A stretch of 64,000 nt of DNA from Escherichia coli (GTDB lineage Bacteria > Pseudomonadota > Gammaproteobacteria > Enterobacterales > Enterobacteriaceae): assembly GCF_030384885.1 (NCBI RefSeq), contig NZ_CP128613.1. One strand, written 5' to 3'. Under the pieces are notes generated by a model. It was not told where the DNA came from. It searched no databases and saw nothing but the letters and a program-made list of their open reading frames with translations. The position numbers were made by a program, and so were the translations under genes. Shown here piece after piece: positions 3,482-12,657 of this stretch. The first letter of the stretch is position 1; each line of letters begins with the position of its first letter.

Positions 3482-4300
3482 TCAGAAAAGAGAAGATTGC
3501 TGTGGAATAGCCGGAACTGCTCCGATCTCTGGAAGTGTTTTACGTAAGCCTTCCCACAGGGTATGTACCAGTTCCGGTGCCTGGGCAATATCTGGCGTAT
3601 GTAAAAAAAGATAAGGCGTAGTGGTCTGATGCCACTGCGCTAATTTTTGTAACCAAACCTGAAACAACTCTCGGTTTTGCGTCATATCATCACTACCGAT
3701 AAAACGGATCAGCGGATTTGTCGCCGTCAGCACAGCATGTACGGGAACTTTAGGTTTTTTCCGTTGAGCGTCGCGAATAGCTTCACTGTGTGGGCGTGCT
3801 GCATGAACCGGGCGGCTGTCTAAAATCACCCGATTAACGCCGCGCTGATGTAAACCGCGATTAAGCGTTTGTTCCTCTTCCCCTTTGGCGAAAAACTGTG
3901 GATGGCGGACTTCCACACCATAATTAAACTCGCCGGGAAGAGAGTCGAGAAAATGCCAAAGCGCAGGCAGATCCCGTGGGCCAAATGTGGCAGGCAGTTG
4001 CAGCCAGTATTGCCCAATGCGCGGCGCTAACGGTGACAAGCGAGTCAAAAATTCAGTTACTAAATCATCGCAATGCCGTAATGCTGCCTGATGCGAAATG
4101 GTCGCCGGAAACTTAAAACAGAAGCGAAAATTATCTGTGGTCTGCTCACGCCAGCGCAGGACAACCTCGGATTTTGGCAGGGCGTAAAGCGTGGTGTTGC
4201 CCTCCACACAGTTAAAGTGGCGGGCATACTCTTCAAGGCTGGTGATCCCCAACCGCACCCATTTAGGATGCGACCATTGCGGCAGACCGATGTAAATCAT
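3482..4300 (-). CDS. yecE: DUF72 family protein
   Basis: 272-aa ORF; translation recognised as YecE. Confidence 0.88.
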
Positions 4301-4863
4301 AATGCGTTGAGGATCTCTTCCACACTGCGCACACGGGCGATGCGTGGGTAGATATGGTTGATGCTGTTATTGTGCTGCTCGGCGCTGGCGGCGCTGCAGG
4401 CGTCTTCGGCAATCACCAGATTAAAACCGAGTTCCCAGGCATTGCGGGCGGTGGATTCAACACCGATATTGGTCGAGATCCCACATAACACTATTGTATC
4501 GATACCCCGGCGGCGTAACTGCAACTCCAGATCCGTACCGTAAAACGCACCCCATTGACGTTTGATGATTTCGATGTCGCTGTCGGTTGCACCTAATGCA
4601 GCAGGATGTTGCCACCAGTTTTCGGGCAACACTTTAGCGGGGGAGGGGGCATCAACCGGCTGTTTTAATGCTTCGGCGTAATCGGTAGACCAACCAACGC
4701 GCACCAGAAACACGGGCTGACCGTTCGCGCGAAATTTCGCCGTCAGCTTCCCTGCTCGATTAACCACCTCATCGGCAGTATGAGGACCACCGGCAAAAGG
4801 TAAGATGCCTTCTTGTAAGTCAATTACCACCAGCGCAGTGGTTTTAGCATTCAGTTCAAGCAT
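4297..4863 (-). CDS. yecD: Isochorismatase-family hydrolase
   Basis: Track ORF trimmed to Met at MLELNAKTT (188 aa); 4-bp overlap with yecE. Confidence 0.85.
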
Positions 4864-5172
4864 GATGACTCCTGACAAAACAAAATCGTGCCTCTCACCT
4901 TAATGCGATTAGCCGATGGCGGAACGACAAATTTTGTTAATTTTTATGAGTTCGGGCAACACCTTTATAGCAAACTGGCGTAGAGTCTGATTTCAGGCCC
5001 GATATAAAGTGGTAACGAGGCGTTCCAGCGCGGGCCAGGCTCTTACGGTGCGGCAGAATTTCCAGTATAATAGCCGCCTTTTTTCATTCAGTTGTGACAT
5101 ACAGCTAACGCTGCGACTTGGTCACCTGCGCAGCAGGGGGCATCCGCCGGCAGCTAAGTTAAGGGATATCTC

Positions 5173-6945
5173 ATGCGTACAGAATATTGTGGACAGCTCC
5201 GTTTGTCCCACGTGGGGCAGCAGGTGACTCTGTGTGGTTGGGTCAACCGTCGTCGTGATCTTGGTAGCCTGATCTTCATCGATATGCGCGACCGCGAAGG
5301 TATCGTGCAGGTATTTTTCGATCCGGATCGTGCGGACGCGTTAAAGCTGGCCTCTGAACTGCGTAATGAGTTCTGCATTCAGGTCACGGGCACCGTACGT
5401 GCGCGTGACGAAAAAAATATCAACCGCGATATGGCGACCGGCGAAATCGAAGTGCTGGCCTCCTCGCTGACCATCATCAACCGCGCAGACGTTCTGCCGC
5501 TTGACTCTAACCACGTCAACACCGAAGAAGCGCGTCTGAAATACCGCTACCTCGACCTGCGTCGTCCGGAAATGGCTCAGCGCCTGAAAACCCGCGCTAA
5601 AATCACCAGCCTGGTGCGCCGTTTTATGGATGACCACGGCTTCCTCGACATCGAAACTCCGATGCTGACCAAAGCCACGCCGGAAGGCGCGCGTGACTAC
5701 CTGGTGCCTTCTCGTGTGCACAAAGGGAAATTCTACGCACTGCCGCAGTCTCCGCAGTTGTTCAAACAGCTGCTGATGATGTCTGGTTTTGACCGCTACT
5801 ATCAGATTGTAAAATGCTTCCGTGACGAAGACCTGCGTGCTGATCGTCAGCCTGAATTCACCCAGATCGATGTGGAAACCTCTTTCATGACCGCGCCGCA
5901 AGTGCGTGAAGTGATGGAAGCGCTGGTACGCCATTTGTGGCTGGAAGTGAAGGGCGTGGATCTCGGTGATTTCCCTGTAATGACCTTTGCGGAAGCAGAA
6001 CGCCGTTATGGTTCTGATAAACCGGATCTGCGTAACCCGATGGAACTGACTGACGTTGCTGATCTGCTGAAATCCGTTGAGTTCGCGGTATTCGCAGGTC
6101 CGGCGAACGATCCGAAAGGCCGCGTTGCTGCTCTGCGTGTTCCGGGTGGCGCATCGCTGACCCGTAAGCAGATCGACGAATACGGTAACTTCGTTAAAAT
6201 CTACGGCGCGAAAGGTCTGGCGTACATCAAAGTTAACGAACGTGCGAAAGGTCTGGAAGGTATCAACAGCCCGGTAGCGAAGTTCCTCAACGCTGAAATC
6301 ATCGAAGCCATCCTGGATCGTACTGCCGCGCAAGATGGCGATATGATTTTCTTCGGTGCTGATAACAAGAAAATTGTTGCCGACGCGATGGGCGCATTGC
6401 GTCTGAAAGTGGGTAAAGACCTTGGTCTGACCGACGAAAGCAAATGGGCACCGCTGTGGGTTATCGACTTCCCGATGTTTGAAGACGACGGTGAAGGCGG
6501 CCTGACGGCAATGCACCATCCGTTCACCTCACCGAAAGACATGACGGCGGCAGAGTTGAAAGCTGCACCGGAAAATGCGGTGGCGAACGCTTACGATATG
6601 GTCATCAATGGTTACGAAGTGGGCGGTGGTTCTGTGCGTATCCATAATGGTGATATGCAGCAGACGGTGTTTGGCATTCTGGGGATCAACGAAGAGGAAC
6701 AGCGCGAGAAATTCGGCTTCCTGCTCGATGCCCTGAAATACGGTACTCCGCCGCACGCAGGTCTGGCATTCGGTCTTGACCGTCTGACCATGCTGCTGAC
6801 CGGTACCGACAACATCCGTGACGTTATCGCCTTCCCGAAAACCACGGCGGCAGCATGTCTGATGACCGAAGCGCCAAGCTTTGCTAACCCGACTGCCCTG
6901 TCCGAGCTGAGCATTCAGGTTGTGAAGAAGGCAGAGAATAATTGA
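5173..6945 (+). CDS. aspS: Aspartate--tRNA ligase
   Basis: 590-aa ORF; class II aaRS motifs; translation recognised as AspRS. Confidence 0.97.
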
Positions 6946-6946
6946 T

Positions 6947-7390
6947 ATGACTTATAAGCGTCCCGTTTCTATTCTGGTGGTTATTTATGCGCAAGATACG
7001 AAACGGGTGCTGATGTTACAGCGGCGTGATGATCCCGATTTCTGGCAGTCGGTAACCGGCAGTGTGGAAGAGGGGGAAACCGCGCCGCAAGCCGCCATGC
7101 GCGAAGTAAAGGAAGAGGTCACCATTGATGTTGTCGCTGAACAACTGACCTTAATTGACTGTCAGCGCACGGTGGAGTTTGAAATTTTTTCACATTTACG
7201 TCATCGCTATGCGCCGGGCGTAACGCGTAATACGGAATCTTGGTTCTGTCTTGCACTCCCGCACGAGCGCCAGATCGTTTTCACTGAACATCTGGCCTAC
7301 AAGTGGCTTGATGCGCATGCTGCGGCGGCGCTCACAAAGTCATGGAGCAACCGGCAGGCGATTGAACAGTTTGTAATTAACGCTGCCTGA
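6947..7390 (+). CDS. nudB: Dihydroneopterin triphosphate diphosphatase (Nudix)
   Basis: 147-aa ORF starting 2 nt after aspS stop; Nudix box [20 protein letters not shown]; exact start uncertain. Confidence 0.85.
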
Positions 7391-7418
7391 ACAGGCAGGG
7401 CTACCTGGAGATATTTTT

Positions 7419-8159
7419 ATGGCAGGTCATAGTAAATGGGCCAACACCAGACATCGTAAAGCTGCGCAGGATGCTAAGCGCGGTAAAATCTTCACTAAAA
7501 TCATTCGTGAACTGGTAACCGCGGCGAAGCTGGGCGGTGGAGATCCGGATGCTAACCCGCGTCTGCGAGCAGCCATTGACAAAGCACTGTCTAACAACAT
7601 GACCCGTGACACCCTGAACCGCGCAATTGCACGTGGTGTGGGCGGTGATGATGATGCAAACATGGAAACCATCATCTACGAAGGTTACGGTCCTGGCGGC
7701 ACGGCAATCATGATTGAATGTCTGTCTGATAACCGCAACCGTACGGTTGCTGAAGTGCGTCACGCATTCAGCAAATGTGGCGGTAACCTCGGTACTGATG
7801 GTTCCGTAGCCTATCTGTTCAGCAAAAAAGGCGTGATCTCCTTCGAGAAAGGCGATGAAGACACCATCATGGAAGCAGCTCTGGAAGCTGGTGCTGAAGA
7901 TGTTGTGACCTATGATGATGGCGCGATTGACGTCTACACTGCATGGGAGGAAATGGGCAAAGTACGCGACGCTCTGGAAGCGGCAGGTCTGAAAGCAGAC
8001 AGCGCGGAAGTTTCCATGATCCCGTCCACCAAAGCTGATATGGATGCAGAAACCGCACCGAAACTGATGCGTCTGATCGATATGCTGGAAGATTGCGACG
8101 ACGTGCAGGAAGTCTACCATAACGGTGAAATCTCTGATGAGGTTGCAGCGACTCTCTGA
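7419..8159 (+). CDS. yebC: YebC/PmpR (TACO1) family transcriptional regulatory protein
   Basis: 246-aa ORF; translation recognised as YebC. Confidence 0.93.
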
Positions 8160-8193
8160 TGAGGCCTGCTAAACAGCAAAACGGAGACGCGTG

Positions 8194-8715
8194 ATGGCTA
8201 TTATTCTCGGCATTGACCCGGGTTCGCGCGTGACCGGCTATGGCGTCATCCGCCAGGTGGGCAGGCAGCTGTCCTACCTGGGTAGCGGATGTATACGCAC
8301 CAAAGTAGATGATTTACCGTCTCGTCTTAAGCTCATCTATGCGGGCGTGACGGAAATCATCACCCAGTTCCAGCCTGATTATTTCGCCATTGAACAAGTC
8401 TTTATGGCTAAAAATGCCGACTCGGCCCTGAAGCTGGGGCAGGCGCGTGGCGTGGCGATTGTGGCGGCGGTGAATCAGGAATTACCGGTATTTGAATACG
8501 CGGCACGTCAGGTAAAGCAAACGGTGGTAGGTATTGGTAGTGCCGAAAAAAGCCAGGTGCAGCATATGGTTCGCACCTTGCTGAAACTCCCCGCTAATCC
8601 TCAGGCGGATGCCGCTGATGCGCTGGCAATTGCCATCACCCACTGCCACGTTAGTCAGAATGCGATGCAGATGAGCGAATCGCGGCTGAACCTGGCGAGA
8701 GGGCGACTGCGTTAA
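8194..8715 (+). CDS. ruvC: Holliday junction resolvase RuvC
   Basis: Translation recognised as RuvC ([17 protein letters not shown]...); second Met taken as start (173 aa). Confidence 0.92.
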
Positions 8716-8716
8716 G

Positions 8717-9319
8717 TTATACCGCCTCAGTCAATTCAGGCTGAGGCGTTTCTACTCCCTCCGCATGAATCAACACCAAACCCGGATGATGCCACAAACT
8801 GGCTGGTGTTACGGTTTTACGCTCCCACGGAATCGAACCTAAAAACCAGAATTTCCAGAAAGTGAGTTTTGCGTTCGGATTGCTATTTAGCAGTTCTCCA
8901 AACGTCTCTATTTCACCCACCGGAATACATAACGCCTCTTTATAAATATCAAAAACGAATTTTGAGCAGAACTGGCGGGAAGATTCGTATTTAAAGCCGG
9001 TGTGGTAGAGCTTATGCAACCGTCCGGGGACCTTTTCGACCAGAGCAAGTTTTTGCTCTGCGGTTAAACCTCCTGCGAGGCGGCGAACACCGTAGCGTTG
9101 ATCGGTCGACCGTTCAATAAATCGTGACAAAGTTGTGATTGTGGAGAGCGGAACTCGACTCTCCGCAACCAGGTAATCATCACCGTCATGTCCGATGATT
9201 ATCCCCACATGGTTGCTCCAGCATTTCGAGGCTGCAGAGATTTGCCCAAACAGGCGAGCACCGATGCAGGTAAAAACAATATCACCGGTTTCATATTTAG
9301 CTGGGTAATTTATTTTCAC
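8717..9319 (-). CDS. yebB: DUF830 family protein
   Basis: 200-aa ORF convergent on ruvC; translation recognised as YebB. Confidence 0.82.
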
Positions 9320-9412
9320 TATATCAATCCATTATTTATATATAAAACAGCATCTATCTTTCGTGATGGTAAAGCATTAGCATTGTATTATAATAATGAC
9401 AAGGAATGTTTT

Positions 9413-10237
9413 ATGCGGTTATTTATTAATGTGATAATTATAGTTTCGATCAGTCAATGCGTGAATGTATTTGCTCAAGATAATGTCATCCGCTATCCCT
9501 GGCGATATGGACGTATTTCTTTAAATGAGAATAATGAGTTTGTGCCTCAAATTATTCATATGCGTGATGATATCTACGGCGTGGGTGAAGCTGGTGCAAG
9601 CCTTAACGATGCGAGAATGGCGCAAAGTGGTGTCGCCGTGAGGCTTAGCGTTATACAGCAGGGGCAGGTGGTGAATGCTTTACTGGATTTCTACAATAGC
9701 AATAATCAACCTGCTTATATCTTTGAAGGTGGTTTGATGCCTTGCAATAAAGCCTTTGACATCACAACAAGCAACATTGTCCTTGATGGGATGTGTGGAA
9801 TTTATGATGGGGTCGATGGCTGGCAAGTTATTCCTGCGGGTGATCATTATAAAGAATCATTTTCACTCACTCAGGCTTTTGAATTTCTGCCGGGAAAACA
9901 TCATTATAAAATTAATGCCGGAAGTTTTATCATCAGAGTCGGGGATGATATTTTTGCAAGAGAGGACGCCGAAAGCATTCTTTTTGATTTGATTAACTGG
10001 CGATATGGCTATGTGCTAAAAAGTTATGAAAGGGTGTCGAAGTGGGATTTAATGGCAGGGACTTATGTACTGCCTGAATACTCGGGGGATAAAAGAATGG
10101 ATGAGTATCGAATTTACTCAAACCAGGTGTCGATTGATCTTAATGGTGACGAGTTAGCACATACGGAGTCCTATCAGTGGCGAATTGATAGCGGAATGAT
10201 CCCGGAAAAATTCAGCGTTCAGGAACTCGCTGAATGA
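9413..10237 (+). CDS. Hypothetical secreted protein (signal peptide), unknown family; not part of the K-12 gene order as I recall it
   Basis: 274-aa ORF from ATG 9413 with AAGGAA RBS 6 nt upstream; N-terminus MRLFINVIIIVSISQCVNVFA/QD looks like a SPase I signal peptide; AT-rich codon usage; track ORF from 9188 overlaps yebB and is not the likely start. Confidence 0.6.
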   Translation: MRLFINVIIIVSISQCVNVFAQDNVIRYPWRYGRISLNENNEFVPQIIHMRDDIYGVGEAGASLNDARMAQSGVAVRLSVIQQGQVVNALLDFYNSNNQPAYIFEGGLMPCNKAFDITTSNIVLDGMCGIYDGVDGWQVIPAGDHYKESFSLTQAFEFLPGKHHYKINAGSFIIRVGDDIFAREDAESILFDLINWRYGYVLKSYERVSKWDLMAGTYVLPEYSGDKRMDEYRIYSNQVSIDLNGDELAHTESYQWRIDSGMIPEKFSVQELAE

Positions 10238-10274
10238 ATCGTCCTCTACCTGCTTGCCAGATACAGAGGCGCGG

Positions 10275-10859
10275 ATGAATTTATCAAGCGTATTCAATCA
10301 GCTTTTAATCTCATTTGCTCTTGCCGGGACGTTGATATTAAGCAGCTATCTCATGAAAGCTCACTACCCACGTTTCAGGAAGCCAATTGCGCTCTTTTAC
10401 TTCTTTTTAGCGATTTATACCAGTTATGCTGCCGTTCAGGAGTATGAGTACCACCGCAATAGCTTGACTACGCTCGCAAAAGTTTCTTCGATTCGTTATA
10501 CCAGTAATTTTAAGCGTAGCGCCTCGCACTCCTGCAATTTACTGCGGGGAGGAAGGATTGATTGCTCGGGGCTGTATGCCTATGACCTGACCTGGCAGAT
10601 TGACGGTAAGACCTGGAATTTGCATGTTGAGGACAAGCGTATAAAACCAGGAATCACCATGTGCGTGAAGGTTGTAAAAGATCGCCCCGCCATCGGGAAA
10701 CCCTGTGAAAACGTGTTTTTCAATATCAGCCCTTTGCCGATTCTGATAGCTATATGGGCAATAAGCGCATTTATATTTGCGGTCTTACTCCTTCACCAAC
10801 TAAAAAAATGCCGCGAATGGAAGCACGCCAGCAAGGAACGTGGAAAAATTGGCCATTAG
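10275..10859 (+). CDS. Hypothetical membrane protein, three predicted TM helices with Cys-rich loop, unknown family
   Basis: 194-aa ORF from ATG 10275 with GAGG RBS; 37 nt after upstream ORF stop; hydrophobic helices near N-terminus (x2) and C-terminus; basic C-terminal tail; AT-rich. Confidence 0.55.
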   Translation: MNLSSVFNQLLISFALAGTLILSSYLMKAHYPRFRKPIALFYFFLAIYTSYAAVQEYEYHRNSLTTLAKVSSIRYTSNFKRSASHSCNLLRGGRIDCSGLYAYDLTWQIDGKTWNLHVEDKRIKPGITMCVKVVKDRPAIGKPCENVFFNISPLPILIAIWAISAFIFAVLLLHQLKKCREWKHASKERGKIGH

Positions 10860-10957
10860 AAGTCAAAGAAAGAGTGCGATGTAAGGTGATTCATAGAAAA
10901 TTTCAGATACCGTGAGCCAAAGGATTATCAGTTCTGAAATGATTTAATATCATCCCT

Positions 10958-10977
10958 CGCTGGATATCTATCCAGCA
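10958..10977 (+). promoter_or_regulatory. LexA (SOS) box of ruvAB operon
   Basis: cgCTGGATATCTATCCAGca, CTG-N10-CAG palindrome about 50 nt upstream of ruvA start; matches the known ruvA SOS box. Confidence 0.8.
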
Positions 10978-11026
10978 TTTTTTTATCATACAGCATTATC
11001 TTTGATTCATTACGCAGGAGCGTCAT

Positions 11027-11638
11027 GTGATAGGCAGACTCAGAGGCATCATCATTGAAAAACAACCCCCGCTGGTATTAATTGAAGTGGGCGGCGTAGG
11101 CTATGAAGTGCATATGCCGATGACCTGTTTTTATGAACTCCCTGAAGCGGGTCAGGAAGCGATCGTTTTCACCCACTTTGTGGTGCGTGAAGACGCGCAA
11201 CTGCTGTACGGTTTTAACAATAAACAAGAGCGCACGTTGTTCAAAGAGTTGATCAAAACCAACGGCGTTGGGCCTAAACTGGCATTGGCAATCCTCTCCG
11301 GAATGTCAGCGCAGCAGTTCGTTAATGCCGTTGAGCGTGAAGAAGTCGGGGCTCTGGTGAAACTGCCGGGTATTGGCAAAAAAACCGCCGAACGCTTGAT
11401 TGTCGAAATGAAAGACCGATTTAAAGGTTTACATGGCGATCTCTTTACGCCAGCTGCCGACCTGGTACTCACGTCACCTGCGAGCCCGGCGACCGACGAT
11501 GCTGAACAGGAAGCGGTTGCCGCGCTGGTGGCGCTGGGCTATAAACCACAAGAAGCAAGCCGCATGGTGAGCAAAATCGCTCGCCCTGACGCCAGCAGTG
11601 AAACATTAATTCGCGAAGCCCTGCGCGCCGCGTTATGA
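11027..11638 (+). CDS. ruvA: Holliday junction branch migration complex subunit RuvA
   Basis: 203-aa ORF with GTG start; translation recognised as RuvA. Confidence 0.95.
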
Positions 11639-11643
11639 GGTAA

Positions 11644-12657
<1,014 letters not shown>

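Follow-up and report, generated by a model that had tools for sequence, protein, structure and literature searches.

The ORF-B gene and its predicted product

The DNA analysed here, referred to as the window, is a stretch of 64,000 nucleotides from Escherichia coli (contig NZ_CP128613.1, assembly GCF_030384885.1). The subject is an open reading frame (ORF) at positions 10275-10859 on the plus strand, designated ORF-B, which encodes 194 amino acids followed by a stop codon. The gene order around it is aspS-nudB-yebC-ruvC, yebB on the minus strand, a second gene designated ORF-A, ORF-B, ruvA-ruvB and znuBC. In the annotation used for comparison, made with the Prokaryotic Genome Annotation Pipeline (PGAP) for E. 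coli 2013C-4282 (NZ_CP027579.1, a 100% match to the window), a hypothetical protein, WP_001054410.1, is called with identical coordinates. A Shine-Dalgarno sequence, GAGG, is found at 10266-10269, 5 nt 5' of the ATG. ORF-B is a genuine gene and more than a chance reading frame, because homologs of 22-94% identity keep four cysteines and the full-length members of the family are under strong purifying selection. There is a somewhat better than even chance, as argued below, that its product is an autonomous protein of the inner membrane which has a DUF3592-like fold and carries a disulfide-bonded domain in the periplasm, and that the gene is an ancient resident of the ruvA slot whose Escherichia variant is weakly constrained and has lost its cytoplasmic domain.

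The coding sequence and the segments of its product are listed here, with transmembrane (TM) helices numbered from the N-terminus and helices of the AlphaFold2 (AF2) model given by residue.

10275-10859 (+): ORF-B coding sequence (ORF list, PGAP, homologs, AF2, Foldseek against AFDB50)
10296-10355 (+): TM1, residues ~8-27 (hydropathy; AF2 helix 3-29)
10356-10385 (+): short cytoplasmic loop KAHYPRFRKP, with 4 lysine or arginine residues and no acidic residue in 10 amino acids (positive-inside count)
10386-10442 (+): TM2, residues ~38-56 (AF2 helix 31-61), equivalent to the single N-terminal TM helix of distant relatives (alignment A1)
10443-10733 (+): predicted periplasmic beta-rich domain, residues 57-153 (AF2 strands, invariant cysteines, DUF3592-type fold matches)
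10734-10802 (+): TM3, residues ~154-176, the most hydrophobic segment (Kyte-Doolittle maximum 2.71; AF2 helix 154-190)
10803-10856 (+): basic cytoplasmic tail, residues 177-194, with a deletion scar at ~10828-10830; residues 182-194 are dispensable (W182* and G190* alleles)

An earlier sequence-only reading of this locus had described a membrane protein with three helices, a cysteine-rich loop of roughly 100 residues and a basic C-terminal tail. Hydropathy and the AF2 model bear out the three helices; the segments are the same, but their coordinates are shifted by ~5-10 residues to those given above. The loop (residues 57-153) is 97 amino acids long and has four cysteines, C87, C97, C130 and C144. 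The tail is KKCREWKHASKERGKIGH, exactly as quoted earlier, with 7 lysine or arginine residues in 18, and the N-terminus is uncharged. By the positive-inside rule the protein is predicted to be oriented N-out, with the loop in the periplasm and the tail in the cytoplasm. The two-TM relatives point the same way as these counts and as the earlier placement of loop and tail, since their basic N-terminus and very basic C-terminal domain would likewise put the loop in the periplasm. Two disulfides formed by the four invariant cysteines, with C87-C97 and C130-C144 as the expected pairs, probably stabilise the periplasmic domain.

One set of database matches was discarded. The motif SHSCNLLRGGRIDCSG (window 10530-10577, ORF-B residues ~84-99) draws multi-stretch phmmer matches to RCC1-like repeat proteins (P0010-P0029; HTCALLRGGTVECWG). 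These are spurious as relatives of ORF-B: the motif is not kept in the true relatives and the resemblance is taken to be due to chance.

Relatives of ORF-B and the DUF3592-like fold

No significant match to ORF-B was found in Pfam, NCBIfam, PADLOC or PHROG, the lone PHROG match having E=0.1 and running across a TM helix. A word-indexed search of 5.8 billion proteins gave four clusters, one from E. coli (94% identity), one from E. fergusonii (89%) and two metagenomic (71% and 55%). Exhaustive HMMER searching of 1.84 billion representatives added a handful at 24-42% identity, with about 10 true relatives in all among these representatives. A profile search retrieved no Pfam-annotated protein and added only a paralog subfamily, from Superficieibacter electus, Salmonella Namur and Pseudocitrobacter cyperus. 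Among 100,044 species-representative genomes (GTDB) searched with alignment A2, the family was matched in two, both Superficieibacter, and a member from Klebsiella huaxiensis is listed by Foldseek. The ORF-B family is very small and restricted to the Enterobacteriaceae.

The four loop cysteines are invariant in the 10-sequence alignment A1, which spans the range of identities given above. Most relatives have one N-terminal TM helix, the loop domain, a second TM helix and a conserved basic cytoplasmic domain of ~65 amino acids with the consensus YRIY..LLxET...A..F...YR....VR.RKGRRK. The extra N-terminal helix, TM1, is confined to the Escherichia-type subgroup (the window and P0001-P0004) and is absent from the distant relatives in A1. 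The same subgroup is without the cytoplasmic domain, except for the 71% relative (P0003, locus L005).

The AF2 model of ORF-B, built from the family alignment, has a mean predicted local distance difference test score (pLDDT) of 82.6, and ~90 in the loop domain. Five strands (63-76, 100-109, 112-121, 128-134 and 141-143) lie between two long helices, the helices of the model being 3-29, 31-61 and 154-190. In a Foldseek search of AFDB50 with this model, nearly all of the 171 matches at E<=1e-3 beyond the family itself were DUF3592 proteins; at ranks 5-50 these had E-values of 5e-6 to 2e-4, probability 1.00, template-modelling scores (TM-scores) of 0.33-0.49 and identities of 12-21%. No solved structure significantly matched the model. 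The Pfam hidden Markov model of DUF3592 (PF12158) matched neither ORF-B nor any of the 10 members of A1 in hmmscan, even at E<=0.1. ORF-B is therefore called DUF3592-like by fold and not a demonstrated member, and the model suggests that it is a sequence-orphan, cysteine-containing branch of that fold.

DUF3592 proteins consist of a TM helix, a beta-rich domain and then one or more TM helices. The ORF-B model resembles this in the succession of helix 31-61, strands 63-143 and helix 154-190, that is, TM helix, compact beta-rich extracytoplasmic domain and TM helix, with which hydropathy agrees, and the distant relatives have exactly the order TM helix, domain, TM helix. Unlike DUF3592, the ORF-B family has four invariant cysteines and, ancestrally, a basic cytoplasmic C-terminal domain, to which the Escherichia form adds the N-terminal TM helix. 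No established function for DUF3592 was found in the literature.

Loss of the cytoplasmic domain and selection on ORF-B

Comparison of the window with the locus of the 71% relative (blastn) gave two colinear blocks, L005 1100-1169 corresponding to window 10761-10830 and L005 1353-1496 to window 10828-10969 (80% identity, E=2e-32). Between these blocks 183 nt (61 codons, in frame) are missing from the window, and the ORF-B tail SKERGKIGH aligns with the ancestral terminus ...SRKGRRKIG. On these alignments the Escherichia ORF-B is a deletion derivative from which the cytoplasmic domain was removed by a clean in-frame loss of 183 bp. Downstream of ORF-B, no remnant of the lost domain could be recognised at the protein level. 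The 55% relative (L004) is also without the C-terminal domain, and its DNA similarity to the window stops before the deletion junction.

The ratio of nonsynonymous to synonymous rates (omega) is 0.10-0.21 among full-length members of the family (P<1e-11 against neutrality). For ORF-B of the window against that of E. fergusonii it is 0.72, with 23.8 nonsynonymous and 9.2 synonymous changes (P=0.29 against neutrality); in the same comparison ORF-A has an omega of 0.23 (P=1.5e-5) and yebB of 0.08. Across alleles the nonsynonymous to synonymous counts are 29:10 in ORF-B versus 21:22 in ORF-A (Fisher P=0.024). Between the E. coli and E. fergusonii forms of ORF-B, the periplasmic domain differs by seven nonsynonymous changes and no synonymous change.

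The 14 Escherichia alleles encode 194, 189 or 181 amino acids as a result of two independent nonsense mutations, G190* and W182*, and residues 1-181 are undisrupted in all 14. Of the 85 single-nucleotide changes that could create a stop codon, 7 lie in the final 13 codons, where both nonsense events are found (P=0.007). In L004, a second lineage, an intact ORF of 194 amino acids has been kept over saturating synonymous divergence with a dN/dS of ~0.14. The core of the Escherichia protein, consisting of TM helices and periplasmic domain, is still retained; its amino acid constraint is weak, or selection is possibly diversifying.

This pattern also bears on the possibility that the Escherichia ORF-B is a non-functional remnant which has not yet been disrupted after deletion of the cytoplasmic domain. 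Such a reading, which we regard as unlikely, is consistent with the removal of a conserved domain that is under constraint in other members, with an omega that does not differ from neutral and the 7:0 ratio in the periplasmic domain, with the variable length of the tail, and with the absence of the haplotype from 99.65% of complete E. coli genomes. Against it stand the freedom of residues 1-181 from frameshifts and stops in the 14 alleles, with nonsense mutations only at the very end, and the intact, constrained ORF of L004, which has no C-terminal domain either. A paralog in Pseudocitrobacter cyperus (P0042) has lost the same domain independently and is intact, which suggests that the core of TM helix, domain and TM helix works alone.

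Occurrence of ORF-A and ORF-B at the ruvA slot

ORF-A and the spacer between the two genes have the following positions.

9413-10237 (+): ORF-A, 274 amino acids (AAGGAA Shine-Dalgarno sequence, signal peptide, alignment A3, remote homologs)
10238-10274 (+): ORF-A/ORF-B spacer, exactly 37 nt between the stop of ORF-A (10237) and the ATG of ORF-B, with no terminator predicted

In almost every context recovered, ORF-B-type genes occupy the slot between ruvC/yebB and the SOS box of ruvA. Both genes are present in E. coli, in E. fergusonii and in a Superficieibacter-like metagenome scaffold (L016), where the gap between them is 289 nt as against 37 nt in Escherichia. There is no homology between ORF-A and ORF-B.

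At least seven loci have an intact ORF-B where ORF-A is absent or decayed. In L012 there is no ORF-A and 267 bp separate yebB from ORF-B; in L013 ORF-B directly follows ruvC; in L014, again without ORF-A, ORF-B is flanked by a different membrane ORF upstream and by the ruvA SOS box downstream. Two Superficieibacter species (L019 and L020) also have ORF-B without ORF-A. Decay of ORF-A beside an intact ORF-B is seen in L004, where N- and C-terminal fragments are fused, and in L005, where the fragments are frameshifted. Within E. coli, ORF-A is disrupted beside an intact ORF-B in three genomes, by a frameshift in L003 and its twin H7 and by a premature stop in L028 that leaves 237 amino acids of ORF-A. 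The reverse case is found in L017/L018, which have an intact ORF-A under purifying selection and no ORF-B, the ORF-A stop being 132 bp from ruvA.

Because each gene is found without the other, ORF-B is probably not the dedicated partner of ORF-A. The sequence-only reading had taken ORF-B to be a binding partner of ORF-A (immunity protein, receptor or anchor), a proposal that would have the two genes occurring together in other genomes; the ORF-B-only and ORF-A-only loci and the 289-nt gap in L016 speak against it. Its description of a 37-nt spacing and shared orientation is correct, and co-transcription, which it had proposed, is plausible in Escherichia given the short gap with no terminator.

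In two genera, paralogs of ORF-B occupy another housekeeping slot, upp-X-purM. S. electus (L015 6001-6774; L020 3944-4639) has two members of the family, one at the ruvA slot and one at upp-purM, and P. cyperus P0042, which as noted has independently lost the cytoplasmic C-terminal domain and has an intact ORF, is located at upp-purM (L032 5001-5564). The ~13 contexts of the ORF-B family and its paralogs are all housekeeping slots, and no toxin, VgrG, PAAR, Rhs, contact-dependent inhibition (CDI) or mobile gene was found in them.

The neighbouring gene ORF-A

ORF-A has a Sec-type signal peptide, MRLFINVIIIVSISQCVNVFA followed by QDN, and an invariant cysteine pair, C111/C128. In the PGAP model ORF-A begins at 9188, is 349 amino acids long and shares 132 nt with yebB; other PGAP records use the 274-amino acid form. 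The start at 9413 is preferred because it has the Shine-Dalgarno sequence and the signal peptide, gives the conserved form and is used in those other records; the long start (9188-9412) and the shortened yebB call of 187 amino acids are probably annotation artefacts. No match to ORF-A was found in Pfam, NCBIfam, PADLOC, PHROG or PDB, and its AF2 model (pLDDT 33) was too poor for a fold search.

A tblastn search of plasmid records gave one relative of ORF-A, in E. coli KE48 (L031 4151-6733). The gene order there is PAAR, VgrG, a 200-amino acid HExxH protein (Pfam Aspzincin_M35, E=4e-5), ORF-A-like 1 and ORF-A-like 2. ORF-A aligned with ORF-A-like 1 with an hhalign probability of 97.2% (E=3e-11; blastp E=6e-14) and with ORF-A-like 2 with a probability of 90.7% (E=1.3e-6; blastp E=6e-9). 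The cysteine pair and a motif block align between ORF-A and these proteins, and the ORF-A-like genes carry signal peptides. The full VgrG-M35 locus is present in 118 of 5,426 E. coli genomes, Nissle and ATCC 25922 among them, and ORF-A-like 2 is found alone in ~550 further E. coli genomes, a solitary distribution typical of orphan immunity genes.

M35-type toxins of type VI secretion systems (T6SS), such as the C-terminal domain of VgrG2b in Pseudomonas aeruginosa, Tpe1 in Acinetobacter baylyi and E. coli PAR M35, act in the periplasm and are neutralised by the product of the next gene downstream, a DsbA-dependent protein exposed to the periplasm (PMC6899460; PMC10673891). The likeness of the present locus to these Tpe-Tpi pairs (VgrG2b C-ter/PA0261; Tpe1/Tpi1, which is ACIAD0054; E. 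coli PAR M35 and its downstream immunity gene) is mainly that of ORF-A, which has homologs directly behind an M35 effector, a signal peptide, conserved cysteines and orphan copies in toxin-less genomes. No M35 toxin was found in the 64-kb window. ORF-B resembles Tpi1 loosely, as an inner-membrane-anchored protein that would expose a cysteine-containing domain to the periplasm; unlike the Tpe-Tpi pairs, it is linked to no toxin locus by either sequence or context.

Judged from its sequence relatives, ORF-A is most readily understood as an orphan T6SS immunity-type (Tpi-like) protein of the periplasm and not as a secreted toxin, because its homologs are in immunity position and because of its signal peptide, the invariant C111/C128 and the omega of 0.23. 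Its earlier casting as a secreted partner of toxin type fares poorly, as it has no toxin domain, and the position of its homologs behind an M35 toxin argues against ORF-A being a toxin that requires ORF-B.

The yebB-ruvA haplotype

The variable segment and its right edge were located as follows.

9020-10950 (no strand): alternative haplotype, comprising the divergent 5' part of yebB, ORF-A and ORF-B (sliding identity, junction alignments)
10959-10985 (+): ruvA SOS-box palindrome GCTGGATATCTATCCAGC (10959-10976) and a run of seven T, forming a terminator-like hairpin at the right edge of the variable segment

The two-gene haplotype is present in 19 of 5,426 complete E. coli genomes. Standard strains such as K-12 and O157 have the same chromosomal slot, from yebB to the ruvA SOS box, with content that is not homologous: a 273-bp yebB-ruvA spacer encoding the 21-amino acid YobI, as against 1.7 kb with ORF-A and ORF-B in the window. 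In place of window 9020-10950 they carry ~0.57 kb containing yobI. The divergent segment extends from ~9020, inside yebB, to ~10950, just before the SOS box.

A recombination breakpoint is located inside yebB (8717-9319, minus strand) at window ~9000-9020. Compared with standard E. coli, the 3' two-thirds of yebB are 90-95% identical and the 5' third 57-78%; the synonymous divergence (dS) of the whole gene is 1.15 from standard E. coli versus 0.12 from E. fergusonii, and the RuvC and RuvA proteins are identical to those of standard E. coli. E. fergusonii (L007), aligned with window ~4000-12500, is 97-99% identical from aspS through ruvB and then ~80-84% identical from znuB on. This block of identity indicates that at least 8 kb, including ORF-A and ORF-B, have been exchanged between E. 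coli and E. fergusonii by homologous recombination. The housekeeping flanks of strain 2013C-4282 (window 4000-26000) are ~95-97% identical to those of E. coli O157:H7 (L026). This is lower than expected between typical E. coli strains, and 2013C-4282 may belong to a divergent lineage.

A mobile cassette was considered and rejected: no flanking direct or inverted repeats were found at the haplotype boundaries, and ORF-B had no match in 72,556 plasmids or 50,697 phages. Breakpoints inside yebB and at the SOS box are as expected for homologous replacement, and the old slot is here present in an alternative haplotype.

The palindrome GCTGGATATCTATCCAGC, the LexA box of ruvAB, forms together with the T-run the first terminator-like hairpin 3' of ORF-B, there being none in the 37-nt spacer. 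This hairpin is likely to be the 3' end of an ORF-A/ORF-B transcript, before ruvA. It may also terminate upstream transcripts more generally, of ORF-B here and of yobI in standard strains. Rfam gave no match in window 8700-11100.

Discussion

Under the reading favoured here, ORF-B would span the inner membrane with three TM helices, N-out and C-in, and display a beta-rich, DUF3592-like domain of ~95 residues in the periplasm. The ancestral form would have consisted of a TM helix, the periplasmic domain, a second TM helix and a basic cytoplasmic domain of ~65 amino acids, an architecture that suggests a cytoplasmic module coupled to a domain for binding or sensing in the periplasm. The Escherichia version would have gained the N-terminal TM helix and lost the cytoplasmic domain through the in-frame 183-bp deletion; it would now be under weak amino acid constraint, with the membrane and periplasmic core protected from truncation. 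ORF-B would act independently of ORF-A, the two being neighbours by shared ancestry of the slot and each lost independently in different lineages.

Several points weigh against this interpretation. ORF-B in Escherichia is statistically indistinguishable from neutral and may be losing its function. The connection to DUF3592 comes from predicted structure only, no member of the family being matched by a Pfam, NCBIfam, PADLOC or PHROG profile, with modest TM-scores (0.33-0.49) and an AF2 alignment of only 10 sequences, and the topology and disulfides are predictions as well. Independent occurrence is compatible with an optional interaction with ORF-A where both genes exist, and co-expression would fit the tight 37-nt spacing in Escherichia. 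Genomes with only ORF-A may carry a distant ORF-B paralog elsewhere, as P0042 at upp-purM illustrates, and several of the key loci are short metagenomic contigs.

Next to the remnant discussed above, and slightly less probable than it, is the possibility that ORF-B is an orphan, membrane-anchored, disulfide-dependent immunity protein directed against a periplasm- or membrane-acting toxin of competitors and forming an immunity islet with ORF-A. Its architecture recalls Tpi1/ACIAD0054 of A. baylyi and its conserved cysteines the DsbA-dependent PA0261 family (PMC6899460), and the predicted periplasmic location of most of the protein, together with the four cysteines, is what would be expected of a Tpi-like protein. 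The neighbour ORF-A is related to genes in immunity position; the gene is patchily distributed, its region is AT-rich (GC 0.45 versus 0.50 in the window) and the protein diverges fast, and an LXG toxin cluster of Streptococcus suis includes a gene for a DUF3592 protein, the role of which is unclear (PMC12482557). However, the only contexts of the family are the ruvC-ruvA and upp-purM slots, with no toxin, VgrG, PAAR, Rhs or CDI gene in any of the ~13, and there is no PADLOC match. The ancestral protein had a conserved domain in the cytoplasm, something for which immunity proteins usually have no need, and the ORF-A and ORF-B families are unrelated.

Still less probable is that ORF-B is the cognate partner of a secreted ORF-A, as immunity protein, receptor or membrane anchor, both being made from one transcript and meeting in the periplasm. 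Both products are predicted to face the periplasm, the genes share orientation and are closely spaced with no intervening terminator and a good Shine-Dalgarno sequence for ORF-B, and the order yebB, ORF-A, ORF-B, ruvA is kept in both lineages that have both genes (Escherichia and L016). What counts against partnership is the occurrence of ORF-B without ORF-A (L012, L013, L014, L019 and L020) or beside a decayed one (L004, L005, L003 and L028), the intact and selected ORF-A without ORF-B in L017/L018, the wider spacing in L016, and the relation of ORF-A, itself without a toxin domain, to the immunity position of a T6SS M35 locus. ORF-B is moreover less constrained than ORF-A in Escherichia, which is unexpected for an essential immunity gene.

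It is very improbable that ORF-A and ORF-B form an immunity islet of the ruvA slot in which ORF-A is an orphan anti-M35 protein of Tpi type and the ORF-B family a hitherto unrecognised membrane-anchored, disulfide-dependent, DUF3592-like immunity protein or sensor, relaying envelope attack through its ancestral cytoplasmic domain and possibly tied to the SOS-regulated ruvAB; were it true, this would give the DUF3592 fold its first function.

The value of these results is modest, as no long-standing open question is touched. A practical by-product is the link between ORF-A and genes in immunity position at the T6SS VgrG-M35 locus of Nissle and ATCC 25922, which suggests an orphan-immunity role for ORF-A. 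The family also provides a natural domain-deletion series, with full-length members, forms with TM1 added and forms that lack the C-terminal domain, as a possible tool for dissecting what the fold does. If ORF-B is the autonomous, slot-resident membrane protein proposed here, it would add a sequence-orphan, cysteine-containing branch to the DUF3592 fold, and the yebB-ruvA slot would be a small example of anciently polymorphic accessory genes that are lost independently, rather than of a mobile cassette.

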